Assembly: GCF_030684315.1 (NCBI RefSeq)
Contig: NC_081391.1
Coordinates: 26,350,888-26,414,887 of the forward strand
Length of the DNA stretch: 64,000 nt
DNA from: Stegostoma tigrinum
Taxonomy: Eukaryota
Direction of reading: 5' to 3'
Every line of letters starts with the position of its first letter. Position 1 is the stretch's first letter. The notes beneath the pieces are model-generated. The model did not search any database, was not told the DNA's origin, and saw only the letters and a program-made list of their open reading frames with translations. The translations under genes were made by a program, and so were the position numbers. This document shows positions 10,478 through 49,100 of the stretch, in pieces.

Positions 10478-10684
10478 ATCATTTAACAGTGCCAGTGATA
10501 ATGGGAACTGCAGATGCTGGAGAATTCCAAGATAATAAAATGTGAGGCTGGATGAACACAGCAGGCCAAGCAGCATCTCTCTGATGAAGGGTCTAGGCCC
10601 GAAACGTCAGCTTTTGTGCTCCTGAGATGTTGCTTGGCCTGCTGTGTTCATCCAGCCTCACATTTTATTATCATTTAACAGTGC
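10478..10684. mobile_element. Miniature PLE-derived hairpin insertion with intact hammerhead core
   Basis: ~50-bp inverted arms of the PLE terminus around CTGATGAAGGGTCTAGGCCCGAAACGTC (10581-10608); direct repeat ATCATTTAACAGTGC at 10478-10492 and 10670-10684. Confidence 0.85.
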
Positions 10685-12454
10685 ATTTTGTTTAGGAAAT
10701 TTTCCAGTCTGCGAAAGCACAGTCCTGTGACCCCGTCCCCTTCTCTTCTCACCACCACCTCCATCCCACTCCCTCCATACACATGCCTCCCACTCCTGCA
10801 GTTTATCAGTGATCACTCTCAGCAGATTCCTCAATGTCCCAGGCATTTGATTGTGTTGATAGAGCATCCTTCATTCACAAACCAGGCATGGGCTTCCTCC
10901 CCTCCCTGGTGCATATATCAGGGTTCTGCCTCAGGCAAGGAGGAATAGTATTTGTTCTCAATCTGACACTGGGAAGACCCAGTCAGTAATCCTTGGTAAT
11001 AGGCAGTTTATTTTAGTGAGCTCCTAGCCTGTCTACCGAGCTGATGCTAACATATTCTAAGGAGGCCAGGTACGCCACTGACTTGTAGCCCGACAATGCA
11101 GACCTTCAGAGCTGAGCAGTATCCCCTGTGGTTGGTCACACTGGATTTTGGTGTGTTAGTGAAAGGATAGTCAGTTTGTTTCCTATCCTGGTCAAAGACC
11201 TTGATTGGAGTTGTAAATGTGAAGAAATTGAATGAGGTAAGGACCCAGATTGCACTTGACTATCTCTTTCCCTTTCCTTTGGCACTTACTGTTCAGGTCA
11301 GTAGGTGCAAGCACTGAGAAGTGAACAGTCAATGCCTAATGATTGGAAGTCTTGTAGAAACATGAGACTGCCTTTGTAGGAGGAGGGAGAAAGGAGAATA
11401 AGCTAAGACAACTTGGTAGTGATATAAAAATCCCCAGTTTAATACTCTGCAAAAAACCACAGAAATGTCTACTATTTTGTCTACATTTGTGTGTATAAGT
11501 TGTACTTATTGGATCTGCAAGACTGGATAACAGTCTTGTACTTCAATACAAAGATAAATCACAACAAAGCAAGGAGTGATCCCAGGCCCTCAAAAACAGA
11601 GGGTCTATCAGGGAGCTCTGAGCTGGATTTTTAAATCATTTCCCTACATTCCCTCCTGACTAACTTGTGTTTGAACCTGATCTGCAGCATTGCTGAAACT
11701 GAATCTGAATCAGTTTTCTCGATACTTTACCCAGAGGTACAGATCTGTCGAGTTTTACAACCTTGCTGTGGCTCTGATTTAAAACCACATGGTGTGCTCC
11801 ACAGTGTCGGGTCTGGAATAGTATGCTATTCACTGTGGTATCACTGTTGATGATTGCTGATTAAATGTTTGCCAAGAATTTACATTTCTATATATTGCTT
11901 AACAATAAAATTAAGCAGCAAGATGAAGTAAATTTGACCCATTTAGCTTGATTCTACCAGTGCAGTAATATCTTGTGTATAATGGTTGGAATTGGTTGGT
12001 ACTGTGAAATGAGAAATTCTGACAGTTTCTAATCAATTATCCAAGGTTCTGATGGTTATTGGAAAATGTAGATGCTGCTGATCACATTTAATATTCCAGG
12101 CATATAAGCTGAAAACCTGTCATTGCCGAAAAATGTGCTACAGTAGGCATTCTCCTGACAAATCCTTCAATCTCCTAGCTAAAGAGATCCCATTATCAGA
12201 TTCCTGTCTTTTTGTTGCCCTCTCCCCATTTACCTGTCAATTTTATTATTGGAATCTGTTCGCCTAATGAGACTGAGATTCTCTGACAGTGGCTACACTG
12301 CAGTTGTGCTACAGAGTTCAAACCCATATTAAAGCCAAACCATTTCCACCACGAGTGCCTCAATGGGTGAGTTAGAAAACAGATGGTACACTGACTCACA
12401 AAGATAAGATGCTTGCATTTCCGAGCTGTGCTTTTGTATTCATGTCTGGCAGTA

Positions 12455-12582
12455 TAACTAGTCAGGGACAAAAACAAAGTTGCTGGAAAAGCTCGGCAGG
12501 TCTGCTGAGCTTTTCCAGCAACTTTGTTTTTGTTCCTGATTTACAGCATCCAGAGTTCATTTGGTTCTTAACTAGTCAGGGA
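12455..12582. mobile_element. ~100-bp hairpin insertion from a second PLE-like family
   Basis: ~32-bp inverted repeat ACAAAAACAAAGTTGCTGGAAAAGCTC / GAGCTTTTCCAGCAACTTTGTTTTTGT; 14-bp direct repeat TAACTAGTCAGGGA at 12455-12468 and 12569-12582; same terminus at 41860-41940. Confidence 0.75.
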
Positions 12583-15135
12583 ACCTGCTCCTGATGGCCA
12601 TCCATTGCCCTCTGCTGGATAGTGAGCGTATAGTAGCATTGTGCCCAACGTTGCCTCCAATTTTTCTTGTGTGGTCTGTTTGTTGCACTTTTCAGAATAT
12701 TCCAAATGAGAGACTGCTGTGCAGTTTAGATAAATTACAGGAGGTTAAAGTTAGTTCCCCACCTAGCTGCCTTCACGAATGGATGTTGGGGAAAGTTTAA
12801 CAACATTATTTATTCTAACCTGTAATTCATGGAATAGTAGCAGTATTGTAATCCCTCCCAGTTCATCTCCTCAACACTGGGGAAATACTTGTCCCTCCTT
12901 GTGAGTTGAAGCAGGGTTCTGAGCTTTCCTGTTTGGTGGTTAAATACTTGGTCATGGTGGCTGGGTATCTCCATCACTAAAAGAACAATTCTCAGATCTT
13001 TGATCTTATGTGAACCCTAATACATATTCTGCTACGTTTTCCGTCAAAACCACTTCGTGTAGTCTCACAAGCTTTCCTTCATTTTCTGTTGGTAAATATT
13101 CTTTGTGTCTGAACCCATGATGGGCTTCAGTATTCTATTTCACTCTGAAGGCGATCACATATCGGCCAAAATATCTATTTAATTTGGACTATTAGGTCCC
13201 AGCTGAAGTCAATTACTTGAGCCGTGAGAGAGTATCAGTCCTCCAGCTCTGTGTTTCAAATTAAGATGTATCGAGATTGCTGCTGCAGAGAAGCACAAGG
13301 ATGGAGGGTAAAGAACACTGATACGCCGATAAACGCTCAGTAGAGGTATTGCAGGGATGGAAGACAACAGAGAGAAACAAATAAAGCAAGAGATGTTATT
13401 GAGTAGGTTGTGGGTAAAGCTACATTTGTGTTTGTCAGTGAGAGGCAGTACCTTCAGGGACTGTATCCCAGTGGGAGTCAGCACTTTCAGGGACCGTGTC
13501 TCAGTGAGAGTTGGTATATTTATTCTCTTAATGAAGATTTTTCAACCTAGTCTTGATGTTTGTAAGGTGCTTAGGAAGTATTAAATACTTTATATTAAGA
13601 ATGTTTTTGTTAAGACACAGAGTAACATGCATGCAACTACATGTGTCTGTTATTCATAAGAATCCCCAAAAAATACATTTATGTAGATTGTTGCCTAAAT
13701 TTTAGTGCAGCAGATTGTGAGTGAAACTGTAGTCACCAGGGCTGACTGATCAGACTGATGTGGGTAATTCACTAGATAATCCAGTGTCACTGTTGATTTC
13801 ACTGATTTTTTTTCCTGGAGGTAGTTTATTCAAAACAACACCAACCTTTTTGACTCGGTCCAACTGGAAACGTGATGGAATGAAAGCTCCTGCTGAACTT
13901 TGACTTGCTATCGATGAATATCTGTCAAAATACATGAACTAAAAATACCCTTGTGTGCACAAAGGGAAGATATAAGAAAACGGAGATTGACTGGGCCTTT
14001 CTGTATTTGAGCCATGGTCCTGAACTTGTTAAAAACCCACTTGAACCTCACGATTCACTGTCAGTTGGGTGTATGGTAATCCTGGTCTGATTGTAATGAT
14101 TTCACACCAAGGCCAAACAGCTCTGCCCAAATTTTGATTTAAGTGACAGAATGTATGGACCCATTTGTCTGTGTCACACTTAACTCCACTACAATAAGAT
14201 GTTCTCCTGATCAAACACTCATAGCTGCCTCTATACCCATGAGTGTGTGCGTTCAGTCATTTAGCATTTAAATCTTTAATTAAAATCAGTAAATGTGGAT
14301 CATTACTTTTGTATGTTGTACCTGCTGTTGGCTGGACATGAGGTTGGACTATTCCTTTCACAACAGGCCATCAGATCTCAGGCAGTGTTACTGCTGTGCA
14401 AACCTTCTGATAGGTCATCCCATCCAAAACAGAACTCAAGCCATTCACCACCACTGTTTAGTAGAGAAGCATGTGGCTGTACTGCTGTGTCCGCAATTTC
14501 TTTCACAATTCAAGGGTGCAGTGATTTCACAGGCTACTGTTCATTGAAATCCAATGATAGCATTATAGTCCGTGTGCCACTCAATTAAATCATTCTGTTT
14601 TCCTAACTTTTTTGAAAGGTAACATTCATTTCTTAACCATTTGCTTTGCTGCTGAAGTTGTAATAACCAATAATATATTACTTTTTCTTTTGGTACATCA
14701 ATGTCACTTTTTAACAAACAAAGTCCAAAGTATGTATTCTATCCATGTCTCTTCAAATAGGTTAAAGCAAAGAATAAGGTATGTAATTAAAATATTGAGA
14801 GCACTGAAGTATGAAATGGAATTGTACACTGTATAACATGCTGGAGAAAGTAATTTAAAGTTGTGTAGGGAAGATTAATTAAATCATGTTGCCAGCAGGT
14901 TTGTATCTGATTCTATTCTGAATCATGAGGGTAATTGCCTGCAGTCTTTTGCGCTAGAGGTCCGTGAGACCTTCAATCCTGTGCTACTAGGTATTCATTA
15001 AACCAAATAATTCTGAACAATATTGACAAGGATGAGGATTTCCTCTTCACACGCCAGATGCTGGAATTTTCTTGATAATTCTGTTGAATTGCGAAGGTCC
15101 TGCTATTAGGTAGCTCTGTAAGTGTCAAACCAGTA

Positions 15136-17213
15136 GTAGCTATGCTGTGTGGAGCTGGATGAACTCAACAGGCCAAGCAGCATCTCAGGGGCACAAAAGC
15201 TGATGTTTCGGGCCTAGACCCTTCATCAGAGAGGGGGATGGGGTGAGGGTTCAGCAATAAATAGGGAGAGAGGGGGAGCGGACCGAAGATGGAGAGAAGA
15301 TAGGTGGAGAGGAGAGTATAGGTGGGGAGGTAGGGAGGGGATAGGTAAGTCCAGGGAAGACGGACAGGTCAAGGAGGTGGGATGAGGTTAGTAGGTAGGA
15401 GATGGAGGTGCGGCTTGGGGTGGGAGGAAGGGATGGGTGAGAGGAAGAACAGGTTAGGGAGGCAGAGACAGGTTGGACTGGTTTTGGGATGCAGTGGGTG
15501 GAGGGGAAGAGCTGGGCTGGTTGTGTGGTGCAGTGCGGGGATGGGACGAACTGGGCTGGTTTTGGGATGCGGTGGGGGAAGGGGAGATTTTGAAGTTTGT
15601 GAAATCCATATTGATACCATTGGGCTGCAGGGTTCCCAAGCGGAATATGAGTTGCTGTTCCTGCAACCTTCAGGTGGCATCATTGTGGCACTGCAGGAGG
15701 CCCATGATGGACATGTCATCTAAAGAATGGCGGAAGTGTCAGAGGATGATGCGTTGTATCCAGAGGTTGGTGGGGTGGTGTGTGAGAACGAGGGGGATCC
15801 TCTTTGGGCGGTTGTGGCGGGGGCAGGGTGTGTGGGATGTGTTGCGGGAAATGCGGGAGACGCGGTCAAGGGCGTTCTCGACCAGTGTGGGGGGAAAGTT
15901 GCGGTCCTTGAAGAATTGGACATCTGGGATGTGCAGGAGTGGAATGCTCCCACGCTGAGGCATTCCATTCCCGCACATCCCAGATGTCCAAGTTCTTCAA
16001 GGACCGCAACTTTCCCCCCACAGTGGTCGAGAACGCCCTTGACCGCGTCTCCCGCATTTTCCGCAACACATCCCACACACCCCGCCCCCGCCACAACCGC
16101 CCAAAGAGGATCCCCCTCGTTCTCACACACCACCCCACCAACCTCCGGATACAACGCATCATCCTCCGACACTGCCGCCATCTACAATCCGACCCCACCA
16201 CCCAAGACATTTTTCCATCCCCACCCTTGTCTGCTTTCCGGAGAGACCACTCTCTCCGTGACTCCCTTGTTCGCTCCACACTGCCCTCCAACCCCACCAC
16301 ACCTGGCACCTTCCCCTGCAACCGCAGGAAATGCTGCACTTGCCCCCACACCTCCTCCCTCACCCCCTCCCTCACCCCTATCCCATGCCCCAAGATGACT
16401 TTCCATATTAAGCAGAGGTTCACCTGCACATCTACCAATGTGGTATACTGCATCCTCTACATTGGGGAAACCAAGCAGAGGCTTGGGGACCGCTTTGCAG
16501 AACACCTCCGCTCGGTTCGCAACAAACAACTGCACCTCCCAGTCACGAACCATTTCCACTCCCCCCTCCCATTCTTCAGATGACATGTCCATCATGGGCC
16601 TCCTGCAGTGCCACAATGATGCCACCCAAAGGTTGCAGGAACAGCAACTCATATTCCGCTTGGGAACCCTGCAGCCCAATGGTATCAATGTGGACTTCAC
16701 CAGCTTCAAAATCTCCCCTTCCCCCACCGCATCCCAAAACCAGCCCAGTTCGTCCCCTCCCCCCACTGCACCACACAACCAGCCCAGCTCTTCCCCTCCA
16801 CCCACTGCATCCCAAAACCAGTCCAACCTGTCTCTGCTTCCCTAACCTGTTCTTCCTCCCACCCATCCCTTCCTCCCACCCCAAGCCGCACCCCCATCTA
16901 CCTACTAACCTCATCCCACCTCCTTGACCTGTCCGTCTCCCCTGGACTGACCTATCCCCTCCCTAACTCCCCACCTATACTCTCCTCTCCACCTATCTTC
17001 TTTTCTCTCCATCTTCGGTCCGCCTCCCCCTCTCTCCCTATTTATTCCAGTTCCCTCCCCCCATCCCCCTCTCTGATGAAGGGTCTAGGCCCGAAACGTC
17101 AGCTTTTGTGCTCCTGAGATGCTGCTTGGCCTGCTGTGTTCATCCAGCCTCACATTTTATTATCTTGGAATCTCCAGCATCTGCCCTTCCCATTATCTCT
17201 GTAGCTATGCTGT
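15136..17213. mobile_element. Penelope-like element, head-to-head inverted 5'-truncated copies (GIY-YIG region)
   Basis: Minus arm about 15149-15950 and plus arm about 15955-17200. ORF with CNRRKCCTCPH and [39 protein letters not shown] at 15136-15148 and 17201-17213. Confidence 0.9.
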
Positions 17214-17466: not shown

Positions 17467-17481
17467 GGATTGAGGCGCGAA

Positions 17482-21062
<3,581 letters not shown>

Positions 21063-21701: not shown

Positions 21702-24700
21702 TCAGGCTGTGTCTTGTGTGTATACTACCCCCAGCTGCCTTCGTGCTTCATCGAGAATGCTCATTATCAGCTCACTCTCAGCCAGCGGCAGCTCAGGACA
21801 CTCTTTAAGCCCTGCAATTAAAACACAAGTTAAAATAGCATCATCCTCCGACACTTCCACCATCTACAATCCGACCCCCCACCACCCAAGACATTTTTCC
21901 ATCCCCTCCCCTGTCTGCTTTCCGGAGAGACCACTCTCTCCGTGACTCCCTTGTTCGCTCCACACTGCCCTCCAACCCCACCACACCCGGCACCTTCCCC
22001 TGCAACCGCAGGAAATGCTACACTTGCGCCCACACCCCTATCCTAGGCCCCAAGATGACTTTCTATATTAAGTAGAGGTTCACCTGCACATCTACCAATG
22101 TGGTATACTGCACCCGGTGTGGCTTCCTCTACATTGGGGAAACCAAGCGGAGGCTTGGGGACCGCTTTGCAGAACACCTCTGCTCGGTTCACAATAAACA
22201 ACTGCACCTCCTAGTTGCGAACTATTTCAACTTTCCCCCTCCCATTCTTTAAATGACACGTCCATCATGGGCCTCCTGCAGTGCCACAATGATGCCACCC
22301 GAAGGTTGCAGGAACAGCAACTCATATTCCGCTTGGGAACCCTGCAGCCTAATGGTATCAATGTGGACTTCACCAGCTTCAAAATCACCGCATCCCAAAA
22401 CCAGCCCAGTTCGTCCCCTCTCCCCACTGCACCACACAACCAGCCCAGCTCTTCCCCTCCACCCACTGCATCCCAAAACCAGTCCAACCTGTCTCTGCCT
22501 CCCTAATCTATTCTTCCTCTCACCCATCCCTTCCTCCCACCCCAAGCCACACCTCCATCTCCTACCTACTAACCTCATCCCACCTCCTTGACCTGTCCCC
22601 TCCCTACCTCCCCACCTATCTTCTTTTCTCTCCATCTTCGGTCCGCCTCCCCCTCTCCCTATTTATTCCAGAGCCCTCACCCCATCCCCCTCTCTGATGA
22701 AGGGTCCAGGCCCGAAACGTCAGCTTTTGTGCTCCTGAGATGCTGCTGGGCCTGTTGTGTTCATCCAGCCTCACATTTTACTATCTTAAAATAGCAGTAG
22801 TTTCCTTCCTGAGTTCAGCTAAAATCTCGATACAATCCCAGTATACAATATCTGAATTTTGCAGAACAGTGACAAAAATCCATTTATTCCATAGTCCCCT
22901 CCAGCACAAACTATAATGAGGGGAAAGTCAGTCTTCCGGAATCTACTCTGAAAGTTTTTCCACATTTCCGTAATACCATTTAACATTTATAGGCAGAGCT
23001 ATTATGGCCTGATGGTGTAGATAATGGGACCAGTGCATTGTTCCTTACAGAAGGCGTTACCTCTCTGGAGACACTGCCTCACTTGGTCAGCTTCATACCG
23101 CAGGCCTGTGCTGTTTGTGAAGTTGAGAGGTTGAGACGGAACTGGCAGTGGGAACTCCTGGACATTGCCATTCACCACCAGACTTGTTGGGCACCACATA
23201 CAGCTTGGAACCTTGATGTGGGGGGGAAAAGACATGTCACAAAACAGCCAACTTTCTCTATTTGATTTTTGCTGTTACATCTGTTTTTTGGGATGATGCC
23301 ACATATCTGCAATTCTCTGCTCTCACCAACCACTGGTATTAGTATGAAGCCCAATATACAGGAACTGTCAAGGGAGTGACTAGATGAAGAGTGAAGGTAT
23401 ATGGTTCACCTGTACAACGTTACATTGGACCATGTGAAGAATGGACACATGCCAGGGTATGGGTGTTTGGAAGTGTCCAGAATTAAGCGCTACTGGGTGT
23501 GAGGTCCCTTGGTTAAATCAGACTGTGGTATTCTAGGGTGTTCAAGTACTGGGAGCCTGGAGATGATAAGTAGAAACTGGTTCTATCTGATTTTATAATA
23601 CAAGACCCATCAGTAAAAGCACATTGGATGGTGTTCTGCATATTCAAGGACTGAGAGGGAAACTTACTGTGATTGTCCCCTTGGTCCCACTTATGGTTGC
23701 CTGGTTAGTGAGCTGTATTGCCATGGATACAGTTATCATAGCCATTCGTTTTCTGGAGTATTTCAGCACAATGGTCACTGCTTCATCAACCCCTGCAGAG
23801 ATATCAGATAGTACCTGGTCAGGAAACAGATGGTTGTAGCTCAGTGGATATAAAGTAGTGTGTTTTGGATGGATGAGGGTATCATTTGTGTCCAGTACAA
23901 TTCCATACTTGCCCTTCTCAGTCAGGAATCCTGTGGCATGAATGGACTCTGGCTTTTCACCGTGGAATACCATGCAGACAAACTGCAGGCAGTAACAGCC
24001 AATGTCCAGCAGCACTCCACCACCCAATTCTTTTTCCACCAGCCGTGCAGTTTCCAACATGTATGTTCCAAACTCTGCTTTAACTATTTTAATCTCACCC
24101 ATGTTATCCTCTTTTAGCAGACCACGAATTGCCTCAGAGACAGGAAAAAAACGTGTCCATAAACCCTGTAAACACAAAACTTCAAGTCAGTTTGCAACTA
24201 CTGCCTGGCACATTCTCACAAGCAACTCAGTTCTGGATGTAACTCCTTCCCAAAACCAACTTTCTCCCTTGAAATTGACACATTCCCTAAGAAAGATAGA
24301 AGAAATACTGTTATATGTAACAGATGACTGTGGAACTGGAGGTACACTCGCAGGCCAGGCAACATCAAAAGAGTAGGAAAGTTGATGTTTTGGGTTGGGA
24401 CTGTGCAGAAATGGGAAGCGGGGAATGGAAATGGGAAATAAATAGAGCGGAGAGGAGGAGTCAGGAAGCTTGGTGGGATGGTGATATGTGAGTGCAGGTA
24501 GGGAGCGGTGAGGATTGGCCAGTGAGGTGGGAGAGAAAATGGTCAGGTCAAGGAGGTGGTGATGAGAGGGAGGGTCGGTCATGGCATGAGGCAGGGATTG
24601 GGGAGATTTTGAAACTGGTTAAATCCACATTTAGGCCATTGGGCCTCATATTCCTGAAACGGAATATGAGGTGCTGCCCCTCCAGTTTGCGGGTGGTGTC

Positions 24701-27700
24701 ATTGTGATAGTGGAGGAGCCCCAGGATGGACATGTCACCCAGGGAGGGAGGAGTTAAAATGGTTCACACTATTACAGAAGGTGTTATTTGTTGTGAACGA
24801 AACACAGATGATCTATGGTTTGTTATGTGCCTTGAAGAGAGGTGTTGGGGGACTGGAATTGGAAGTCTTGGAGGAGGTGGAGGGCTTGGGTAGTGCCTTG
24901 GATGTAGGTGGGGAGTTGCCAACACCTCATCTTCACTATAGACATCCAATCTCTGTACACCTATATTCCCCATGTGGTTGGCCTAAAAGTCCTCCATTTC
25001 TTCGTCTCCCACAGGCCCAACCAGTCCCCCTGCGCCAACACCCTCATCCACTTAACCAAACTCGTCCTTCCCCTTAACAATTTCTCCTTTAACTCCTCCC
25101 ACTTCCTACAGTCTAAGGGGGTGGCCATGGGAACCCGAATGGGCCTAACGTATGCCTGCCTCCTCGTAGGATACGTGGATCAGTCTCTCTTCCACAGCTA
25201 CACTGGCACTACCCCCACCTCTTCCTCTGTTACATCATTGACTGTATCAGCACCACCTCGTGCTCCCAGGAGGAGCTTTAACAATTCATCAACTTTACTA
25301 ACACCTTTCACCCCAACCTCAAATTCACCTGGACCATCTCTGATACCTCCCACTCCTTCCTGGACATCTCCATCTCTGGCATCTTTCCCTGCAACCGCAG
25401 GAAGTGCTCAGCCTGCCACTACACCTCCACCCTCACCACATTCAAGTCACAAAACAAACATTCTACATCGGACAGGGTTTCACCTGCACAGATTCAATGT
25501 GTTCTACTGCATCCGCTGCTTCCAATGTGACCTCCTCCACAACGATAAGACCAAGCAGAGACTCAGAGACCACTTTGTAGAGCGTCTGCGCGCTGTTCAC
25601 GGCAAACGACAACATTTTCAAGTTGCGAACCATTTCACCTCCCCCTCCCACTCCCTGGACAACATGTCCATCCTGGGCCTCCTCTCGTGTCAGAATGACA
25701 CCACGTGCAGACTGGAGGAGCAGCACCGCATACTCAGCCTCAGGAATCTACATCTGATGGCCTAAATTTGGATATTACCAGCTTCAAAATCTCCCAAACC
25801 CTGGCCTCAAACTATGACCAACCTTCTCTCTCATCCCCACCTCCTTAACTTGACAGAACCTGACCATCTTCTCTGCACCTATACGTCCCTCCCACCTCAC
25901 TGACCAATCCCCACCACTCCCTACCTGCACTCACCCAACACCATCCAACTTACCTTCCCCAGCCTCACCCTACTCTATTTATTTCTGAGCTCCCTTATCC
26001 CTCCCCATTTCGGAAGAAGTGTCCCAACTTGAAACGTTAACTTACTGCTCCTCTGTTGCTGCCTGATCTGCTGTGTTCATCCAGCTCCACATTGTGTTAT
26101 TTCTGACTCCAGCACCTGCAGTTCTTACTATCTCTCACTGTTACACGTAAACCCAAAGGGATTCTTTACCCAAAACTGTTCACTGCATTAGCCACATGGG
26201 CAGAACCAAAAGCATCAACAGGTTTCAATATTCTAATCTTAATTCATTTATAGTCTGGGCAGTAAATTCCAACTTTGCCACTGTTCTCACATCCCAAGAA
26301 TGAATTAAACAAAATGGCTGTTGCTAGCAAACCCAGTAATTAAGCGACATCACTAATGATCTTCAGGAAGGTGGTAGTGAGTTTTGCTGTTTCGGAAGTT
26401 ACTGTCATTCTAGCCTGATTTGGGCTGGTCCTTTATTGCAGTAGTAAGGGAGTGCGACACTGTTGACAGGTCAGTTTTCTAGATGATTAGTTTATTCATT
26501 CAGATCCCAAGTCTCCTTGAATAAGAGTGAAGCATTTTTCCCAGTTTCCAATATTTTCATCTCAAGCAGCACCATCAAAAGAGATGATTTATCTCAATGT
26601 GGGATGGTGAACAACTCTGTCATGTGTTTACATTCCACAATTTTAGGGATGTTGACAACAGCCAATGAAAAAATGGTACTTAATTTTACTATATTCAAGA
26701 AAGGAGGGAGAGAGTAAAACGAAATGACAGGCAAATTATCCTCATGTCAATTGTTGGGGGAAAAAAGCTGGATATGATCAAGAGAGTCTTAATGTAATAG
26801 GAAAAACATGGTGTAATTTGCTTCACAAACATTAATATTAAGAGTTTTCAGGAGGTAACTTTCAGGATAGATAAAGAGGAGCTAGTTAATGTAGTCTGCT
26901 TGGATGTCCAAAGGCATTCAATCAGGTGGCATCCAAAAGGTTAACACACATGACAAGAACAAGTGGAGTTTGGGCGATGTATTAGCACGGACTGAGAATT
27001 AGTTGAGGTCCAAGAAGTAGATAAGTAGGGTATTTTCAAGATGACATGCTGTGGCTAGTAGAGTGCTGCAACAATCTGAGGACTCAGCTATTTATAGTCC
27101 ATATTAATTACCCAGGTGACAATGCAGAGTAATGTATCTATGTTTGCTGACATACCTAACATCGGGATAGGTGGGAATGTAGGTTAAGAAAAAACAAGCT
27201 GTAAAAAATATAGACAGGTTAAGTGAGTGCTCAACAAGATAGTAAATGGCATATAATTTGGAGAAGTGTGAAAGTATCCACTGGTTGTGAGAATTTTAGA
27301 AAAGTCTTTTTGTGGAAAAAGATGTGAAACATGAAAATAATAATACTCCAAGAAACCTGACATTTCTAATGCTAGGAAGACAAAATGTCAGTCTGCAAAT
27401 ACAGCAAACAATCAGGAATGCACATTGCATTTGGCCTTTCTTGCAAGATCCTGGACAGACTAGGTTGAAAAGGTACTGAGACACAGTTTTCCCTGAGCTG
27501 GGCAATCTAGAAAATGGGGTCAGTCATTTAACACTGATGTGCAGAGAAATTTATTTGATTAAAAGTGTAGTATACAAGTAGTTCTGCTATAAGGCATGCT
27601 CGTTAACATGAATTAGCTGTAATGCAATTGATGAATAGTGGACACTGTTTGGATAACCTTCTCTTATACAGATATATCAACTTCCCTATAATGCAATTTT

Positions 27701-30327
27701 CTATAGCGCGACGTCACATGAAAATGCAACTATGCGTTGTAGGAGAACTACCTGCATCCCGTCCCAGATGATTGTGGGTGCTCTATCATTGAATATTTTG
27801 CGCAGTAAACGTGTATAATATGTTATGTTTGGAATCTGAAAATCAAAAGAAGCAGATGGATATAGGTGTGAAGTTCTATATGGTGCTCCTTTTGGAAAGG
27901 TCAGAAATTAAATTTGGAACAATGACCTCGAGACAGCTGGTCCCACAAAGGCCTGCAATTGAGTGCCTCGGAAAACTCCTGTAAGTGTTAATGCATATAA
28001 TGTCTATCCTGTTGAGTTTGCAACAGAGTAAACACATAAAAGGGATAGCAGGAACTGCAGATGCTGAAGAGTTCTGAGATAACAAGGTGTCGAGCTGGAT
28101 CAAGCAACATCAGAGGAGCAGGAAGGCTGACGTTTCGGGTCTAGACCCTTCTTGAAAAATGAGGGAGGGGAAGGGGACTCAAATAAATAAGGAGAGGCGG
28201 ATTGCAGATGAATAACCTGTCCCTCCTCCCACCTAACCCCTCCTCCCACCTCAAGCCCTACCCCCATCTCCTAACATCAACCCGCCCCCTTAACCTGTCC
28301 AAGATAATAAAATGTGAGGCTGGATGAACACAGCAGGCCAAGCAGCATCTCAGGAGCACAAAAGCTTAGAGACGTTTTGGGCCTAGACCCTTCATCAGAG
28401 AGGGGGATGGGGAGAGGGTTCTGGAATAAATAGGGAGAGAGGGGGAGGCAGACCGAAGATGGAGAGAAAAGAAGATAGGTGGAGAGGAGAGTATAGGTGG
28501 GGAGGTAGGAAGGGGATAGGTCAGTCCAGGGAAGACGGACAGGTCAAGGAGGTGGGATGAGGTTAGTAGGTAGGAGATGGGGGTGCAGCTTGGGGTGGGA
28601 GGAAGGGATGGGTGAGAGGAAGAACAGGTTAGGGAGGCAGAGACAGGTTGGACTGGTTTTGGGATGCAGTGGGTGGAGGGGAAGAGCTGGGCTGGTTGTG
28701 TGGTGCAGTGGGGGGAGGGGACGAACTGGGCTGGTTTTGGGATGCGGTGATTTTGAAGCTGGTGAAGTCCACATTGATACCATTGGGCTGCAGGGTTCCC
28801 AAGCGGAATATGAGTTGCTGTTCCTGCAACCTTCGGGTGGCATCATTGTGGCACTGCCTTAACCTGTCTATCCTCCCCGGACTGACCTATCCCCTCCCTA
28901 ACTGCCCACCAACACTCACCGTTACTGGCTCCATCACCGCCTCTTTGACCTGTCTGTCTCCTCTCCACCTACCTTCTCCTCTATCCATCTTCCATCCGCC
29001 TCCCCTCTCTCCCTATTTATTTGAGATCCCCCTTTCTCTCCCCCATTTCTGATGAAGGATCTAGGCCTGAAACATCGGCTTTCCTGCTCCGAAGATGCTG
29101 CTTGGCCTGCTGTGTTCACTCTGGGATCTGACTTGTCCAGGGTAATGCATGTATTCATACACAAGACACATTTTTAATCTGCCCGGGAATCATGGGATAG
29201 AGGAAGGGGGCAGTGAACTTGTGAAGTCCATAATTATTTTAAGGTGGAGTAGGGTTAAAGGATATATTCGCACATTTTACATGCTCTTATGTCCCTGGAG
29301 ATTTACTCTGCATCTAACCCCGTGCTGTCCCTGTCCTGGGAGCGTTTGTTGGGGACAGTGTAGAGGGAGCTTTACTCTGTATCCAACCCGTGCCGTCCCT
29401 GTCCTGGGAGTTTTTAATGGGGACAGTGTAGAGGGATCTTTCCCCAAGTTTATCTGTATCGGAAACTGACGCTGGGTCCCTGAGGTACTTTTTCAGCTCT
29501 GATTTGGTCTGTGTGTTCTCACTGTGTCTGTGTGCTCTCTCGAGTTACAGGTTGGAGAAACAGGAGCGAGATGCAGAGCCTGAACTCACCTCCATGAGGA
29601 AGAGGTTCTTGTCCCGGGCTGCACTGACCAGCTGCTGGACTTCGCGCAGATTCATGGCCAGGGGCTTCTCACAGAGAACATTCCTTCCAGCATTCAGCAT
29701 GAGTAAAGCCACCTTCAGGTGCTCGGGGTTAATGATACCCACGTAGACAATGTCTGGCAACAGAGTGGTAAATACAGTGACTTTTACAATCTGTTCCTGT
29801 CACACGTTCTTACTCACACTGCCACTATTCCAGTCAAATGTACAGCCATGCTGTTACTGTCACGCTCTACGTTCACACTTTATTTGTTAGGAGGCAGTTA
29901 CATTGCTGTGAGCCCGGAGTTACATGTAGGTCAGACCAGGTAAGGAAACCGCTCCCTTAAGGGCAGCTGGGCTTCTACAGCAATTGCCGGCTGTTACCTG
30001 CTGCCCATTGAGACATTTCGCTTTTATTGTGGAATAAATGCTGGCAGGTTGGGACAAGTCCCGACAATCCGAAGCTGGAGCCTGGATTGCTGCCACACAC
30101 AGGCCCCCTCACTCCCCTCGGGGTTGGGGGGGGGGGGTGGGAAAGGGACGTCTTTTCAGGCGGTTCCCTCTCCCTGATGGACAGCGTCGGAGCCCGAATC
30201 CCGGGAATCTCACCGACATCGGGATCGGCCGCCAGCTCTCGGTATGAACCGTACGATTTGGGGATTTGGTGTCGCTCCGCGAATTCCCGGGACCGGGAGG
30301 AATCCCGAGAGGCGATCGCCACCGCCT

Positions 30328-31572: not shown

Positions 31573-31627
31573 GAACCCCGGGTCTGGGTGTGGGTCTGTG
31601 TGTGGAGTTGGAGCGGTCCTGCTCAGG

Positions 31628-31660
31628 TTTTTATGGAGACTGGGGCTCTCTGGGCCAATC
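31628..31660 (-). promoter_or_regulatory. Candidate DHDH core promoter (CATAAAAA TATA-like box and CCAAT)
   Basis: TTTTTATG at about 31628-31635 and CCAAT at about 31655; no transcript evidence. Confidence 0.4.
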
Positions 31661-31784
31661 GCTGAAAACGCTGCTGTTTGCAAAATCCTGCATTAATAAC
31701 TGACCGGGGTTTAAACCCGGATCACTCCGGCTCACACCAGCTCACCGGCTCCGAACTCGGCAACATTCTCAAATTTCCGCAAAC

Positions 31785-34366: not shown

Positions 34367-36700
34367 ACAATCACTGAAATCTAAGACAATAAAATGTGAG
34401 GCTGGATGAACACAGCATGCCCAGCAGCATCTCAGGAGCACAAAAGCTGACGTTTCGGGCCTAGTCCCTTCATCAGAGGGGGGGATGGGGTGTGGGTTCT
34501 GGAATAAATAGGGAGAGAGGGGGAGGCGGACCGAAGATGGAGAGAAAAGAAGATAGGTAGTGGGAGGAATCGAAAGAGAAGTGTTTGAGGGTGAGGATGA
34601 GTTCGGCTAGGCGGATGAGGGTGTCGGTGGAGGGGGACTGGTCGGGCGTGCGGGACAGGAAGAAGCGGAGGGCCTTGAGGCCATCTGCATGCGGAATACA
34701 GGTGTATAGGGACTGGACGTCCATGGTGAAAATGAGGTGTTGGGGGCCGGGGAATTGGAAGTCCTGGAGGAGGTGGAGGGTGTGGGTGGTGTCACGGACG
34801 TAGGTGGGGAGTTCCTGAACCAAAGGGTAGAAAATGGACTCCAGATAGCTGGAGGTGAGTTCTGTGGGGCAGGAGCAGGCTGAGGCGATGGGTCGACCAG
34901 GGCAGGCAGGTTTGTGGACTTTGGGAAGGAGATTTCTATCTCCACCGACACCCTCATCTGCCTAGCTGAAGTCGTCCTCACCCTCAACCACTTCTCTTTC
35001 GATTCCTCCCACTTCCTACAGACTAAGGGGGTGGCCATGAGCACGCGCATGGGCCCCAGCTATGCCTGCCTCTTTGTAGGTTACGTGGAACAGTCCCTCT
35101 TCCGCACCTACACAGGCCCCAAACCCCACCTCTTCCTCCGTTACATTGATGACTGTATCGGCGCCGCCTCTTGCTCCCCAGAGGAGCTCGAACAGTTCAT
35201 CCACTTCACCAACACGTTCCACCCCAACCTTCAGTTCACCTGGGCCATCTCCAGCACATCCCTCACCTTCCTGGATCTCTCAGTCTCCATCTCAGGCAAG
35301 CAGCTTGTAACTGATGTTCATTTCAAGCCCACTGACTCCCACAGCTACCTAGAATACACCTCCTCCCACCCACCCTCCTGCAAAAATTCCATCCCCTATT
35401 CCCAGTTCCTCCGCCTCCGCCGCATCTGCTCCCACGATGAGGCATTCCACTCCCGCACATCCCAGATGTCCAAGTTCTTCAAGGACCGCAACTTTCCCCC
35501 CACAGTGGTCGAGAACGCCCTTGACCGCGTCTCCTGCATTTCCTGCAACAAATCCCTCACACCCCGCCCCTGCCACAACCGCCCAAAGAGGATCCCCCTC
35601 GTTCTCTACCTCACCAACCTCCGGATACAACGCATCATCCTCCAACACTTCCGCCATCTACAATCCGACCCCACTACCCAAGACATTTTTCCATCCCCAC
35701 CCCTGTCTGCTTTCCGGAGAGACCACTCTCTCCGTGACTCCCTTGTTCGCTCCACACTGCCCTCCAACCCCACCACACCCGGCACCTTCCCCTGCAACCG
35801 CAGGAAATGCTACACTTGCCCCCACACCTCCTCCCTCACCCCTATCCCAGGCCCCAAGATGACTATCCACATTAAGCAGAGGTTCACCTGCACATCTGCC
35901 AATGTGGTATACTGCATCCACTGTACCCGGTGTGGCTTCCACTACATTGGGGAAACCAAGCGGAGGCTTGGGGATCGCTTTGCAGAACACCTCCGCTCGG
36001 TTCGCAATAAACAACTGCACCTCCCAGTCGCAAACCATTTCCACTCCCCCTCCCATTCTTTAGATGACATGTCTATCATGGGCCTCCTGCAGTGCCACAA
36101 TGATGCCACCCGAAGGTTGCAGGAACAGCAACTCATATTCCGCTTGGGAACCCTGCAGCCCAATGGTATCAATGTGGACTTCACCAGCTTCAAAATCTCC
36201 CCTTCCCCCACCGCATCCCAAAACCAGCCCAGTTCGTCCCCTCCCCCCACTGCACCACACAACCAGCCCAGCTCTTCCCCTCCACCCACTGCATCCCAAA
36301 ACCAGTCCAACCTGTCTCTGCCTCCCTAACCTGTTCTTCCTCTCACCCATCCCTTCCTCCCACCCCAAGCCGCACCCCCATCTCCTACCTACTAACCTCA
36401 TCCCACCTCCTTGACCTGTCCGTCTTCCCTGGACTGACCTATCCCCTCCCTACCTCCCCACCTATACTCTCCTCTCCACCTATCTTCTTTTCTCTCCATC
36501 TTCGGTCCGCCTCCCCATCTCTCCCTATTTATTCCAGAACCCTCACCCTATCCCCCTCTCTGATGAGGGCCCGAAACATCAGCTTTTGTGCTCCTGAGAT
36601 GCTGCTTGGCCTGCTGTGTTCATCCAGCCTCACATTTTATTATCTTGGATTCTCCAGTATCTGCAGTTCCCATTATCACTGATACAATCACTGAAATCTA
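34367..36700 (+). mobile_element. Penelope-like (Neptune-type) retroelement: RT C-half + Cys linker + GIY-YIG endonuclease (ORF 34914-36329), with inverted 5' arm
   Basis: [58 protein letters not shown]...[17 protein letters not shown]. Inverted arm 34384-34935 carries DVQSLYT. TSD ACAATCACTGAAATCTA at 34367-34383 and 36684-36700. Confidence 0.93.
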
Positions 36701-37161: not shown

Positions 37162-38366
37162 AATTGTGAAAGGTAGATAATAAAATGTGAGGCTGGATGA
37201 ACACAGCAGGCCCAGCAGCATCTTAGCAGCACAAAAGCTGACGTTTCGGGCCTAGACCCTTCATCAGAGAGGGGGATGGAGTGAGGGTTCTGCAATAAAT
37301 CGGGAGAGAGGGGGAGGCGGACCGAAGATGGAGAGAAAAGAAGATAGGTGGAGAGGAGAGTATAGGTGGGGAGGTAGGGAGGGGATAGGTCAGTCCAGGG
37401 TGGACAGACAGGTCAAGGAGTTAGAATGAGGTTAGTAGGTAGGAGATGGAGGTGCGGCTTGGGGTGGGAGGAAGGGATGGGTGAGAGGAAGAACAGGTTA
37501 GGGAGGCAGAGACAGGTTGGACTGGTTTTGGGATGCAGTGGGTGGAGGGGAAGAGCTGGGCTGGTTGTGTGATGCAGTGGGGGGAGGGGACGAACTGGGC
37601 TGGTTTTGGGATGCTGTGGGGGAAGGGGAGATTTTGAAGCTGCAAGCCTCCGCTCGGTTCGCAACAAACAACTGCACCTCCCAGTCACGAACCATTTCCA
37701 CTCCCCCTCCCATTCCTCAGATGACATGTCCATCATGGGCCTCCTGCAGTGCCACAATGATGCCACCCGAAGGTTGCAGGAACAGCAACTCATATTCCGC
37801 CTGGGAACCCTGCAGCCTAATGGTATCAATGTGGACTTCACCAGTTTCAAAATCTCCCCTTCCCCCACCGCATCCCAAAACCAGCCCAGTTCGTCCCCTC
37901 CCCCCACTGCACCACACAACCAGCCCAGCTCTTCCCCTCCCCCCACTGCATCCCAAAATCAGCCCAGCCTGTCTCTGCCTCCCTAACCTGTTCTTCCTCT
38001 CACCCATCCCTTCCTCCCACCTCAAGCCGCACCTCCATTTCCTACTTACTAACCTCATCCCACCTCCTTGACCTGTCCGTCTTCCCTGGACTGACCTATC
38101 CCCTCCCTACCTTCCCCACCAATACTCTCCTCTCCACCTATCTTCTCTTCTGTCCATCTTCGGTCCGCCTCTCCCTCTCTCCCTATTTATTCCAGTTCCC
38201 TCCCCCCATCCCCCTCTCTGATGAAGGGTCTAGGCCTGAAATGTCAGCTTTTGTACTCCTGAGATGCTGCTTGGCCTGTTGTGTTCATCCAGCTCCACAC
38301 TTTATTATCTTGGATTCTCCAGCATTTGCAGTCCCATTATCTCTGATACAATTGTGAAAGGTAGAT
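37162..38366. mobile_element. Penelope-like palindromic insertion
   Basis: Inverted arms meet near 37645; TSD AATTGTGAAAGGTAGAT at 37162-37178 and 38350-38366. Confidence 0.9.
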
Positions 38367-41804: not shown

Positions 41805-41945
41805 TCTCAGTTCTCAGGAAGAGTCACCGGACCTGAAATGTTAACTCTGTTTTCTCCTTCACAGATGCTGCCAGACCTGCTGAGCTTTTCCAGCAACTTT
41901 GTTTTTGTTCCTGATTTACAGCATCCGTAGTTATTTTAGTTCTCC
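41805..41945 (+). mobile_element. PLE-like terminus (second family) with degenerate hammerhead core
   Basis: Shares its tail with 12500-12560; CTCAGGAAGAGTCACCGGACCTGAAATGTTAAC. Confidence 0.6.
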
Positions 41946-42199
41946 CTATCACCTTGGATCTCATTACCTAGATGTCTAATCTGTTAATGTCCAAACCTAC
42001 ACTAACCCCAGTGATCTAAAGCAGAAAAGGTTTTCCACAGATCATCACTCCATTATCCCAAGGTACAAACTGTACTCTCCCTTGACCATCCTGGCTCCTC
42101 TGATTGGCCCCTGCACACCCAGCCTCTGTCACTATGAAGGTGAAACGAACCATGTGCACTGTGCCTCTTGTCTGGAACGATATCCTTCATCATCAAGTC

Positions 42200-42925
42200 A
42201 ACACAGCGTGGAGCTGGAGGAACACAGCATCAGAGGAGCAGGAAAGTCAATGTTTCAGGTCGGGGAGAGGGGAGGGAGCTGGGAAGGTGATAGCTGTTGT
42301 ATGTAGGGGGTAGTGGAGATCGGTCGGTGGGAAGGGAAGGGCGGATAGGTGGGAGAGAAGATGGACAGGCTGTGTCAGGCCAAGGAGGTGGAGATGTGAG
42401 GGAGGGTTGGACTGGGATGAGGCTGGGGTTGGAGAGATTTTGAAACTGGTGAATTCTATGTTCAGGCCATTGGGCTTTAGACTTCTGAGGTGGAATATGA
42501 GGTGTTGTTCTTTGAGTTTGCTTGTAGCATAATTGTGACACTGGAGGAGGCCCAGGATGAACGTGTCACCAAGGGAGTGGGAGGAGAAGTTAAAATGGTT
42601 GGCAGTCAGAAGCTGGTGTTGATTATAGCGCAGATACACCAGGAATCGGTCACCGAGTCTGCGCTTGCTCTCACTGATATACAGGAGGGCACGTCAGGAA
42701 CAATGGATACAGTCGACCAGTTTGGAGGATGTACAGGTGACCCCCTGTTAGATTTGGCAAGTTTGTCTTGGGCCTTGGGGCGAAGTGAGGGGGAGGTGTC
42801 AGGAAAGGTGTAGCAACTCCTGCTGTTGCAGGGAAAGGTGCCGGATGTGATGGGGTTGGTGGGGAGTGTGGATGAGGGAGTCAGGGGGACAGCAAGCCCT
42901 ACAGAAGGCAGATGGGGTGGGGAAG
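42200..42925 (-). mobile_element. Degraded Penelope-like fragment
   Basis: Minus ORF ANHFNFSSHSLGDTFILGLLQCHNYATSKLKEQHLIFHLRSLKPNGLN. Confidence 0.8.
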
Positions 42926-43369
42926 GACTATCTAAAGAGAAATTAGGGAATCAAAGCTGGCATCATCAGCAAGGATCATGCCCCAAGAAAATACACTTTT
43001 CAAAAATTTGCTGATTCAGTTCAACTCCATTTGGAATCTCTACCTTCAGCACCTGCCATCAACTTCCTGATTCACTTCCTTCCACACTGTTCTTCGCGGG
43101 AATGTTGCTCATCTCTCAGTTTGTAACTTTGCAGCTTTCCAGATGCATTCCTGAGTTTCACTTCTGGATGATAAAGACTACTTCAGTGTTCCTGGACAGA
43201 AGCTATACATAATGATTCTCCTTCATAATTCACACCTTCGTTATACAACTCTCCTATGCATTGTCCCATTATCATCTCCCTGTTCCATGCACCCTCATCA
43301 CTTTGTCCTTTAGTCTTTTCTCTGTACCTCTGCACACAGCCCCATTTCAATCATCATCCATTCCATCCT

Positions 43370-45898: not shown

Positions 45899-46131
45899 CT
45901 GATTGGGTCAGAAGTCACACGGCACCAGGTTACTGTCCAACAGGTTAATTTGAAACCAGAAACTCTCAGAGTGGTGCTCCTTCATCACACTTCACCCGAT
46001 GAAGCAGCAGCGCTCCAAAAGCTTATGATTTCAAATGAACCTGTTGGACTATAATAACTTGGTGTTGTGTGATTTCTGACCTTGTCCAGCCCAGTCAATA
46101 CTGGCACTTCCACATCACGATTTCTGATTGG
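45899..46131. mobile_element. Short hairpin element (third family) inserted at the PLEKHA stop codon
   Basis: Imperfect inverted arms at about 45906-45987 and 45996-46082 plus tail; TSD CTGATTGG at 45899-45906 and 46124-46131; hammerhead-like CCGATGAAGCAGCAGCGCTCCAAAAGCTTA. Confidence 0.75.
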
Positions 46132-49100
46132 TACTTTCTCCTTGATTATTTTGGCCTGAACGGAGGTTGACTGAATCTTCATAATATCCTGAGTGTTGAC
46201 TGGCTGCCTCTGTGTGATGTTCTAAATTAAAAGTGCGCCCATGTTGTTGCCGCTTTGATTGACACTTGGTTTTCTCAGACTGTCCTGGGTCCTGGGGACT
46301 GTCTGACTCCTCCTCTTTTTCATGGAACTCAGCTAAAGCTTTAGCTGAAAAGCAAATAAAGGAAACAAATCACATTTCACATGGATCATTGAATCTGAAA
46401 TCAGACAATAACAAGATATCCATCTTTCCACCTGCATCACTCCATCATCACTCCATAAAACACCCAACGTCACCCTGTCCTACATCACCACAACATGCGG
46501 GGACGGGGCTGGCGCGGGGACGGGGCTGGCGCGGGGCGGATGTTTTTGCAGACAGCCAGCAGAGATAAATACCAAATGACCTTGTTCTGAATGAACCGTT
46601 TCTCTGATTTTCTGTCTCTGTCAAACATTACAGATCGAGTTCAGGCTTTTCTTTGACTTGGTGATATTTGAAATCAGTTTTTTGTTATTGTCCACTACGT
46701 GCTGTTGCTTCTGTGTATCTAACCCCCGTGAGCTGGCTGTGAACAGGGAGTGTTTGATGGGGACAGTGTAGAGGGAGCTTTACTCTGTATCTAACCCCGT
46801 GCTGTCCCTGTCCCTGGGAGTGTTAGATGGGGACAGTGTAGAGGGAGCTTTACTCTGTATCTAACCCCGTGCTGTCCCTGTCCCTGGGAGTGTTAGATGG
46901 GGACAGTGTAGAGGGAGCTTTACTCTGTATCTAACCCCGTGCTGTCCCTGTCCCTGGGAGTGTTAGATGGGGACAGTGTAGAGGAGCTTTACTCTGTATC
47001 TAACCCCGTGCTGTCCCTGTCCCTGGGAGTGTTTGATGGGGACAGTGTAGAGAGAGCTTTACTCTGTATCTAACCCCGTGCTGTCCCTGTCCCTGGGAGT
47101 GTTAGATGGGGACAGTGTAGAGGAGCTTTACTCTGTATCTAACCCCGTGCTGTCCCTGTCCCTGGGAGTGTTAGATGGGGACAGTGTAGAGAGAGCTTTA
47201 CTCTATATCTAACCCCGTGCTGTCCCTGTCCCTGGGAGTGTTAGATGGGGACAGTGTAGAGAGAGCTTTACTCTGTATTCAAACAGATGTCAGAGATTTG
47301 TTTTCAGTTTAAAATTGTAAAGGGAGCTTCAAACCTGTATCTAACCCCGTATTTTATCGCCACTGGAATGTTCGATAGGGACGGTGCAGAAAAGGCTTTA
47401 CTTTCAGTTTAAAGGAGTAGAGGTTCTGCTCCATATTCCAGCCCATGTTGTCCCTGCCCTGAGAATGAGAGACTGGGACAGTGTAGAAAGAGCTTTACTT
47501 TCTGTTTGACCCTGTGCTGTCCCTGTCTTTGATGGAGACTATGTCCAGGGAGATTTGCTTCCAGTTTAAAAGAGAGCTGGGGCCGGCATGGGGAGAATGA
47601 TGGCGGGGTAAGAAGCAGATTGCCAGGAGCTAGTGAATGTGGGAATTTGTCCCGCTGATTTCACCTGCCAGGGCTTTGCTGTGCTGTGACACTTCAGTGG
47701 CGAGACTGTAAGAGAGATTAATTATCCAATCCCTCTCTCTCTCTCCCAGTGGCATGGCTCGATCTGCAGGGGCCCAGTTCCCAGCTACACTAGGACTAAA
47801 ATTAAACAGAAATACGTGTTTACTTGATGTGAACTCATGTGCAGCGAGGCCAGAGACCCAGCTCTGTGATACCACAGCAAATGAGAAGAGTCTGAACTCA
47901 TTCATTTTAACTGAACCCCAAAATAACAGGGACACAGACCCCCCGAGCCCCAGAATAACAGGGGCACAGACCCCCGAGCCCCAGAATAACAGGGGCACAG
48001 ACACCCGAGCCCCAGAATAACAGGGGCACAGACCCCCGAGCCCCAGAATAACAGGGACACAGCGGCCCGAGACCCAGAATAACAGGGACACAGACCCCTG
48101 AACCCCAGAATAACAGGGACACAACCCCCTGAACCCCAGAATAACAGGGACACAGCCCCGTGAACCCCAGAATAACAGGGACACAGCCCCATGAACCCCA
48201 GAATAACAGGGCCACAGCTCCCTGAACCCCAGAATAACAGGGACACAGACCGCCCGAAGCCCGGAAGAATAGGGAGTGATCTGGGAGTGCAGTGGCTCAC
48301 GGGGACAGTCAACGAAGGCTGGAAATCCAAGATAATAAAATGTGAGGCTGGATGAACACAGCAGGCCAAGCAGCATCTCAGGAGCACAAAAGCTGACGTT
48401 TCGGGCCTAGGCCCTTCATCAGAGAGGGGGATGGGGAGAGGGAACTGGAATAAATAGGGAGAGAGGGGGAGGCGGACCGAAGATGGAGAGTAAAGAAGAT
48501 AGGTGGAGAGAGTATAGGTGGGGAGGTAGGGAGGGGATAGGTCAGTCCAGGGAAGACGGACAGGTCAAGGAGGTGGGATGAGGTTAGTAGGTAGATGGGG
48601 GTGCGGCTTGGGGTGGGAGGAAGGGATGGGTGAGAGGAAGAACCGGTTAGGGAGGCAGAGACAGGTTGGACCAGTCCAACCTGTCTCTGCCTCCCTAACC
48701 GGTTCTTCCTCTCACCCATCCCTTCCTCCCACCCCAAGCCGCACCCCCATCTACCTACTAACCTCATCCCACCTCCTTGACCTGTCCGTCTTCCCTGGAC
48801 TGACCTATCCCCTCCCTACCTCCCCACCTATACTCTCTCCACCTATCTTCTTTACTCTCCATCTTCGGTCCGCCTCCCCCTCTCTCCCTATTTATTCCAG
48901 TTCCCTCTCCCCATCCCCCTCTCTGATGAAGGGCCTAGGCCCGAAACGTCAGCTTTTGTGCTCCTGAGATGCTGCTTGGCCTGCTGTGTTCATCCAGCCT
49001 CACATTTTATTATCTTGGAATTCTCCAGCATCTGCAGTTCCCATTATCTCGAAGGCTGGAAATCCCTCTGTTAGTTGTGAATGACAAGAGACCTTTAGCG

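Follow-up and report, generated by a model that had tools for sequence, protein, structure and literature searches.

Nine inverted insertions of Penelope-like elements

A 64,000-nt window of the Stegostoma tigrinum genome (GCF_030684315.1, NC_081391.1:26,350,888-26,414,887, forward strand; positions are numbered within the window throughout) contains nine hairpins made of truncated ends of Penelope-like elements (PLEs), laid out as an inverted copy plus a tail, and these hairpins are real insertions. From their junctions we consider it an even call that such structures arise when both nicks of the target prime DNA synthesis and one of the two cDNAs then folds back and joins the other.

All eight insertions of this design listed in the initial annotation were recovered in an unbiased inverted-repeat census (arms of at least 30 nt, span below 3 kb), their coordinates being the first bases of the direct repeats that flank inverted arm pairs, and the census added a ninth, older pair at 28041-29118. 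Five block-shuffled windows used as controls gave 0, 1, 1, 0 and 0 matches. Comparison of the window with itself showed one family of sequence ends present in both orientations. With hand-set boundaries, PLE-like sequence amounts to ~12.0 kb, i.e. 19% of the window. The annotated dimensions held: between target site duplications (TSDs), hairpins measure 100 bp at the least (12455) and 2300 bp at the most (34367), the termini fall into three families, and one arm bears a tail of 34, 35 or 43 nt (one example per family).

Exact TSDs flank the hairpins at 10478 (15 bp), 12455 (14 bp), 15136 (13 bp), 34367 (17 bp), 37162 (17 bp) and 48313 (16 bp). When the identical direct-repeat search was run on 300 random position pairs, repeats of at least 11 bp never occurred (0/300), those of at least 8 bp occurred at 16 pairs and those of at least 7 bp at 74. 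The TSDs of these six hairpins are secure, whereas the direct repeats of 45899 (8 bp) and 24307 (7 bp) are not above chance taken alone; the annotated range of 8-17 bp stands for the six at 13-17 bp only. Counting two further insertions that have a single arm, no tail and no inversion (21830, 11 bp; 28288, 12 bp), TSDs of 11-17 bp were found at eight sites. At 28041, 41872, 42200 and 62396 the direct-repeat search gave TSDs at chance level.

Two types of end lie ~35 nt apart, and the inner, tail-less one also terminates the single-arm copies. The tail-less arm of 15136 ends ~20 nt earlier than other tail-less arms. As for the arms, described at the outset as 5'-truncated copies of the element end, they are truncated, but the long ones are not simple end copies: they extend into the open reading frame (ORF) of the reverse transcriptase (RT) and carry internal skips. 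Miniature inverted-repeat transposable elements (MITEs) form homogeneous families with symmetric terminal repeats and a TSD of fixed length. The term MITE-like, also applied to these insertions, is descriptive only, as no two of the nine hairpins have a common centre, their arms and ends are asymmetric and the TSD varies from 7 to 17 bp.

Empty sites and polymorphism

Contigs of four runs, out of 24 listed, were aligned to positions 9000-15230, a stretch that covers 10478, 12455 and the left part of 15136. The runs come from two samples of organism A, which are the same species (S1, run X1, possibly the sample behind the window assembly; S2, run X2), and from organism B, a related species ~95% alike (two runs); 142,393, 157,753, 35,761 and 23,871 contigs were placed. 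No contig crosses the centre of any hairpin.

In both organism B runs one contig joins 10477 directly to 10670 and keeps a single copy of the target, and hence 10478 is absent there. At 12455, an S2 contig joins 12454 to 12569 while S1 contigs enter the insertion from both sides: this insertion is polymorphic within organism A. That these are true insertions with a target duplication is borne out by the empty sites. At 10478, contigs of both organism A samples also run into the insertion from either side, and at 15136 they do so from the left. PLE termini are very abundant in the contigs of the four runs, and among the loose ends listed in the left arm of 10478 the commonest is the tail-less terminus (10530: 612 contigs in X1 and 635 in X2).

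At 15123 the alignment of one organism B contig breaks off, and the 268 letters with which that contig continues may represent the empty site of 15136. Separately, at 10493-10673, 22-25 contigs per organism A run, and none in organism B, join a tail-less to a tailed end, tail to tail, with unknown letters between them; these could be tandem hairpin units, re-insertions at the TSD, or circles.

Structure of the individual insertions

Five of the hairpins belong to family 1. The one at 10478..10684 lies between TSDs at 10478-10492 and 10670-10684, with a tailed arm at 10493-10579 (minus strand) and a tail-less arm at 10577-10669 (plus strand); its loop measures 44 nt and contains a hammerhead core at 10581. 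In 15136..17213, the left arm (15149-15947, minus) has a ~390-nt internal skip at 15727-15730 and is separated by a 12-nt loop from the right, tailed arm (~15945-17200, plus), with a damaged core at 15229 (minus) and an intact one at 17073 (plus). The longest, 34367..36700, combines a left arm made of a 175-nt end and ~380 nt of upstream RT (minus), a 4-nt loop near 34931-34934, and a right arm consisting of a 10-nt head, a ~300-nt skip and 34937-36683 with the tail; its cores lie at 34476 (minus, intact) and 36560 (plus, with a 7-nt deletion). The hairpin at 37162..38366 has a left arm at 37179-37642 (minus) and a right, tailed arm at 37647-38349 (plus), with cores at 37267 (minus, intact) and 38218 (plus, damaged). 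Finally, 48313..49065 is a perfect hairpin with a 2-nt loop, a tail on the right and two intact cores, 48422 (minus) and 48923 (plus).

Family 2 is represented by 12455..12582, with a 2-nt loop, a tail on the right arm and no hammerhead core, and family 3 by 45899..46131, with its weak 8-bp repeat, a ~11-nt loop, a 43-nt tail on the right and a decayed core. Two hairpins are of an older subfamily: 24307..26143, which holds RT and GIY-YIG remnants, internal skips in both arms and decayed cores, and the ninth hairpin, 28041..29118, which has its tailed arm on the left and no convincing TSD. Both single-arm insertions are of family 1 and have a tail-less end: 21830..22796 (plus) with an intact core at 22694, and 28288..28868 (minus) with a damaged core at 28398. 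The latter interrupts the ninth hairpin, so that a young single-arm copy sits within the pseudo-long terminal repeat (pLTR)-like arm of an older one, which fits the reported insertion of PLEs into their own pLTRs. Decayed single remnants of PLE ends or GIY-YIG sequence of related families were also seen at 41780-41945, 42195-42930, 51247-51366, 52520-52780, 53039-53150 and 62390-62460.

Identity of the element

The right arm of 34367 contains the open 3' half of a PLE ORF (34938..36329, plus), with RT motifs at 35028 and RYIDD at 35139, a CX4CxxC linker at 35793 and a GIY-YIG domain at 35904 with CCHH residues (CxxC inside the GIY-YIG motif at 35904, EH at 35985 and NHF at 36033). The left arm holds the next RT segment upstream, inverted. 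The Pfam match to GIY-YIG (E 0.006) is below the curated cut-off, and no solved structure matched the ORF. Its homologues number 971, many with RVT_1 and some with GIY-YIG, the closest being from Stegostoma (93%) and Rhincodon (88%). The Penelope-like identity proposed initially is supported by the RT, the linker, the GIY-YIG domain and the homologues alike.

Judged by the motif definitions of Craig et al. 2021 (PMC8557442), the sequence is that of an endonuclease-positive (EN+) PLE of the Neptune/Nematis type: an RT is followed by a C-terminal GIY-YIG with CCHH residues, the pLTR has a minimal hammerhead, and 5' truncation comes with an inverted copy, a one-sided tail and a TSD, while the linker that separates RT from EN conforms to CX2-5CxxC. 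A literature search returned no paper on these shark elements, although Repbase, Dfam, supplements and subscription papers may already include the family, which is a new or uncatalogued member of a group whose architecture is already known. Between the two, Neptune may be the better fit, given its vertebrate range and the mention of fish Neptune elements by Cervera and De la Pena 2014 (PMC4209133).

Arkhipova et al. 2013 (PMC3846280) describe the inverted pLTR with a TSD and a 31-bp one-sided tail as typical, remark that junctions are head-to-head and palindromic, and put forward self-priming; in Craig et al. 2021 (PMC8557442) the same layout is given for all EN+ clades. As reported in these two papers, complex insertions of EN+ PLEs, which have a tail of 30-40 bp, share with ours the head-to-head copy, the tail at one end, the enclosing TSD, junction palindromes and microhomology-mediated internal deletions. 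They differ in TSD length (8-10 bp in the rotifer examples vs 11-17 bp here), and the window has a very high density of insertions and, by self-comparison, neither a direct tandem pLTR nor a full-length copy within its 64 kb.

Junction signatures of the arms

The origin of the inverted ends of PLEs is still called undefined by Craig et al. (PMC8557442), and the PAc work of Frangieh et al. 2024 accounts for the tail (PMC11167929). This window provides three signatures that can be counted across a shark genome to choose between one template, two templates and self-priming: coupled heads, lineage-discordant outer arms, and microhomology to the target at tail-less ends.

Heads are coupled. In seven head pairs of the main and older subfamilies, lying 87-2045 nt from the element end, the actual pairing is the closest of 5040 permutations, and it ranks second of 5040 under the less favorable reading of 34367, without the 10-nt head of its right arm. 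That arm has 10 nt of the RT site of the left head, followed by the ~300-nt skip at a 4-nt microhomology. Loops measure 2, 2, 4, ~11 and 12 nt in five hairpins. In 10478 and 12455 the head is longer on the tail-less arm, and hence the tail cannot have been copied from that arm. Two simpler schemes were rejected: fold-back of the tailed cDNA alone, because of these longer tail-less heads, and plain joining of two independent cDNAs, which fails on head coupling.

At each of the nine tail-less ends examined, 1-4 nt are common to the end and the target, with a sum of 19 vs 6-8 expected (P 0.0003-0.005), a count that leaves out 24307 and 28041, whose ends are uncertain. Aligned bases differ between arms at 26/579 positions in 15136, 36/464 in 37162, 9/168 in 34367, 1/46 in 10478 and 0/343 in 48313. 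For 9 of the 26 events at which the outer arms of 15136 differ, each of the two states recurs in other insertions, where 1.6 would be expected by homoplasy (P 4e-5), and these arms have no shared private variant over 587 columns. The inner arms of this hairpin share a derived Leu>His change (Leu is found in 100/120 homologues compared and in 12/12 at ≥58% identity). These variants suggest that the outer arms of 15136 carry different lineages, and those of 37162 likewise but less surely, the case being strong only for 15136. A variant pair at columns 552-553 is present in 5/6 tail-less vs 1/4 tailed arms, numbers too small for a test.

A short direct repeat of 7 nt at the two end sites of family 1 exceeds shuffled expectation (P 0.006), and equivalents were not significant in family 2 (P 0.34) or family 3 (P 0.07). 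In the family 1 example at 48985-49049, the same 7-nt motif precedes both end sites and the tail resembles one repeat unit; families 1 and 2 have a common short core in mid-tail.

How the hairpins may form

The mechanism we consider an even call would begin with the GIY-YIG nuclease cutting staggered nicks 11-17 bp apart, a spacing recorded in the TSDs and empty sites. Each nick would then prime RT at one of two fixed sites of the pLTR RNA, ~35 nt apart, one leading to a tailed and the other to a tail-less end; both end types are present here, and two-site, two-strand priming, demonstrated in vitro for a Poseidon PLE, would apply to these insertions too. Annealing of the inner site would rely on the 1-4 nt of target homology observed. 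This tail-less site is an element end by itself, because the single-arm copies 21830 and 28288 end there. Synthesis of one cDNA would then stall, and the strand, after snapping back at a mini-palindrome, would copy itself; both heads would thereby lie near the same element position, as the observed coupling has it. The new sense strand may then anneal to the second cDNA, often one made from another RNA: in the correct register this would produce a seamless hairpin, and in a misregister set by microhomology an internal skip. Later deletions near the centre would have eroded some hairpins. This scheme is compatible with the longer tail-less heads, the head coupling and the discordant arms of 15136, and it places the internal skips at the join.

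The closest experimental parallel is PAc (Poseidon, Anolis), which, as described by Frangieh et al. (PMC11167929), is a predicted dimer that cuts and extends both strands, with two RT start sites that bound the tail, and inserts with no need of the hammerhead. Its tail lies in the start of the ORF, whereas no ORF runs through the tail here. Twin priming had been proposed for these insertions in the initial annotation, and the part of it that has both target strands primed fits the two end types as well as PAc in vitro. In L1 twin priming, too, both target strands prime, and a non-overlapping upstream piece of one RNA ends up inverted, with a TSD and microhomology at the junction. In each of the nine hairpins here the same 3' end is present in both arms, and in none does the inverted segment avoid overlap with the direct one. 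Because the arms overlap fully, and differ in lineage variants in 15136, twin priming in the L1 sense is not supported. A literature search at the level of listings found no paper applying twin priming to PLEs.

Several observations weigh against a fold-back of one cDNA followed by its joining to the other. Loops of 2 nt on stems of 2-3 bp are hard to reconcile with intrastrand fold-back, and strand-to-strand annealing fits them better. The two heads of a hairpin do not always coincide: the offset is ~190-195 nt for 37162 and 28041, 70 nt for 24307 and 44 nt for 10478. The shared inner template is read from a single derived site, and lineage discordance, in a comparison of 12 arms from this one window, is well supported in one hairpin: in 37162, 6/34 events have both states elsewhere vs 2.2 expected, which is weak (P 0.03), in 34367 discordance is absent (2/9 vs 0.7 expected, P 0.15), and the identical arms of 48313 have three shared private variants, which fits one template or later homogenization. 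Ectopic conversion among very many copies could also yield mosaic arms. Lastly, PAc is reported to start at sites without homology to the cut DNA (PMC11167929), unlike the microhomology found here.

We rate it below an even call that a dimeric RT-nuclease primes both nicks at two repeated terminal motifs, on two different RNAs, one cDNA snapping back and being spliced to the other. If true, this would explain together why there is a tail, why copies are inverted head-to-head, why heads are coupled, and where internal skips and mosaic lineages come from, and shark genomes, with their very many dated and partly polymorphic copies, would be a record of how the inverted ends of PLEs form. Templating by one RNA copied twice, which is nearest to the idea of the initial annotation, is in our view unlikely. 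The inner nick would prime first and the tail-end nick second, displacing the first cDNA, and both would run off the same broken 5' end of the RNA and anneal at the mini-palindrome, with arm differences arising later by mutation and ectopic gene conversion. Coupled heads, 2-nt loops, either arm being the longer-headed one, the constant offset of the tail and the absence of differences between the arms of 48313 are all explained in this way; yet a conversion tract of ~580 nt is required in 15136, and probably another in 37162, and no reason is offered for internal skips between inner and outer arm segments. Arms identical at birth are what self-priming would predict, i.e. pre-integration priming whose template is antisense or a fold-back, with nuclease resolution of the palindromic intermediate trimming one end and leaving the tail. 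The arms of 15136 contradict this, single-arm copies, which have no inversion, stop at this tail-less site too, and PAc produces both end types by RT initiation (PMC11167929). We find self-priming improbable, even if junction palindromes are common here as in rotifers (PMC3846280), 48313 is a perfect palindrome and Craig et al. attribute the tail to resolution by the EN (PMC8557442).

Two explanations of another kind deserve very little credence. Hairpins might be mobile units in themselves, comparable to MITEs or retrozymes: source loci that are hairpins already would be copied in full, and the hammerheads would process the copies. Vertebrate non-autonomous PLE derivatives with hammerheads are reported, including tandem retrozymes (bioRxiv 10.64898/2026.07.22.740005), as is the mobilization in trans, by PLE proteins, of cargo bounded by pLTRs (PMC3846280). 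Against such units, which we judge highly improbable, the nine hairpins share no centre; non-LTR retrozymes are head-to-tail tandems with hammerheads on the same strand, whereas the hairpins are head-to-head, with cores on opposite strands; in 48313 and 37162 pairing of the core is predicted to be complete, and 12455 has no core at all. It is scarcely credible, in turn, that some inversions, and foremost that of 48313, are artefacts of assembly or polishing. The arms of 48313 are 100% identical, and in the contig alignment, made at 9000-15230, no hairpin centre is spanned; but the fold-back of a read would not be expected to produce unique flanks with a 16-bp TSD and a tail on one side, the arms of other hairpins differ by 4.5-7.8%, and insertion ends are entered by contigs of two samples (10478 from both sides, 15136 from the left) or of X1 (12455 from both sides).

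Hammerhead cores

The elements had been described as ending in hammerhead ribozymes, but the hammerhead is located ~95-130 nt inside the element end. The motif itself is, as annotated, of the minimal type I: an additional base lies between A9 and G10.1, and a palindromic ACGU stands instead of stem III. It agrees with the minimal PLE hammerheads of Cervera and De la Pena 2014 (PMC4209133) in this extra base, in the G10.1-C11.1 pair, and in having a palindromic 15.2-16.2 and no stem III. It differs in that stem II is itself near-palindromic, and stem I has 2 bp, vs 4-5 bp in S. mansoni and 2 bp in D. virilis according to the same source. We counted 13 cores in the main and older families, of which 7 are intact; 12455 has none, and those of 24307 and 45899 are decayed. 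The cores exist where annotated, except that on the minus strand C3 falls at 34476, 37267 and 48422, where other ends of the motif had been given. Rfam returned no hammerhead match at E≤5, and its miRNA matches at 48570-48780, which we discarded, merely reflect the long hairpin.

In all contexts folded, the predicted pairing probability of stem I is ~0. The core is predicted to be fully paired with the opposite arm in 48313 and 37162, and in 10478, where it sits in the loop, stem II is predicted to form (P 0.996) and stem I is not. Self-dimerization through alternative pairing is also predicted. No hairpin has more than one core on a given strand, and where there are two they lie on opposite strands, so that no tandem dimer is on offer; pairs of hammerheads on opposite strands, 100-700 bp apart, have been described in Schistosoma (PMC4209133). 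With 7 of 13 cores intact, a stem I of 2 bp and cores predicted to be buried in the long hairpins, these copies are unlikely to be working ribozyme units. The hammerhead is probably an inactive passenger of the pLTR, and in calling the insertions ribozyme-bearing the annotation was right about the motif, while its function is doubtful. Cervera and De la Pena report only low in vitro activity for minimal PLE hammerheads (PMC4209133), and the PAc study indicates that such motifs can be protein-assisted (PMC11167929). At 10570-10640, the 44-nt loop of 10478 corresponds almost exactly to the hammerhead, clamped by the arms.

Host genes and other sequence

The insertions had been placed in and around genes, which holds at 6-30 kb; between 34 and 62 kb, a Pfam search of 118 frames, each of at least 52 aa, found no host family. 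Exons of a BTB/C2H2 zinc-finger gene of the ZBTB type lie at 6521..9576 (plus, Pfam). An RPS11-type ribosomal protein gene follows at 17482..21062 (plus), with an intronic SNORD35 at 18523-18607 (Rfam) and no PLE insertion found inside; the ~2-kb insertion 15136 ends 269 bp before its start codon. The minus strand of 23647..29799 encodes a GFO/IDH/MocA oxidoreductase, which we take to be DHDH-like; its exons occupy 23647-24186 and 29548-29799, and 24307, 28041 and 28288 all lie in the intron that separates the two. Long near-perfect hairpins, placed within an intron and beside the RPS11 promoter, in a window of which PLE-like sequence makes up about one fifth and where some insertions are polymorphic, bear on assembly, on annotation and on possible double-stranded RNA.

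Intron 4 of RPS11 contains, at 19215-19312, a segment with box C/D-like ends that may be a second intronic snoRNA, for which Rfam gave no match. Minisatellite arrays with periods of ~12-70 nt occupy 5360-6495, 30500-34200, 39454-40002, 46704-47348, 47878-48311, 53800-60200 and 62400-64000; the window has a run of N at 55770-55930, and 48313 adjoins an array of 31-nt period.

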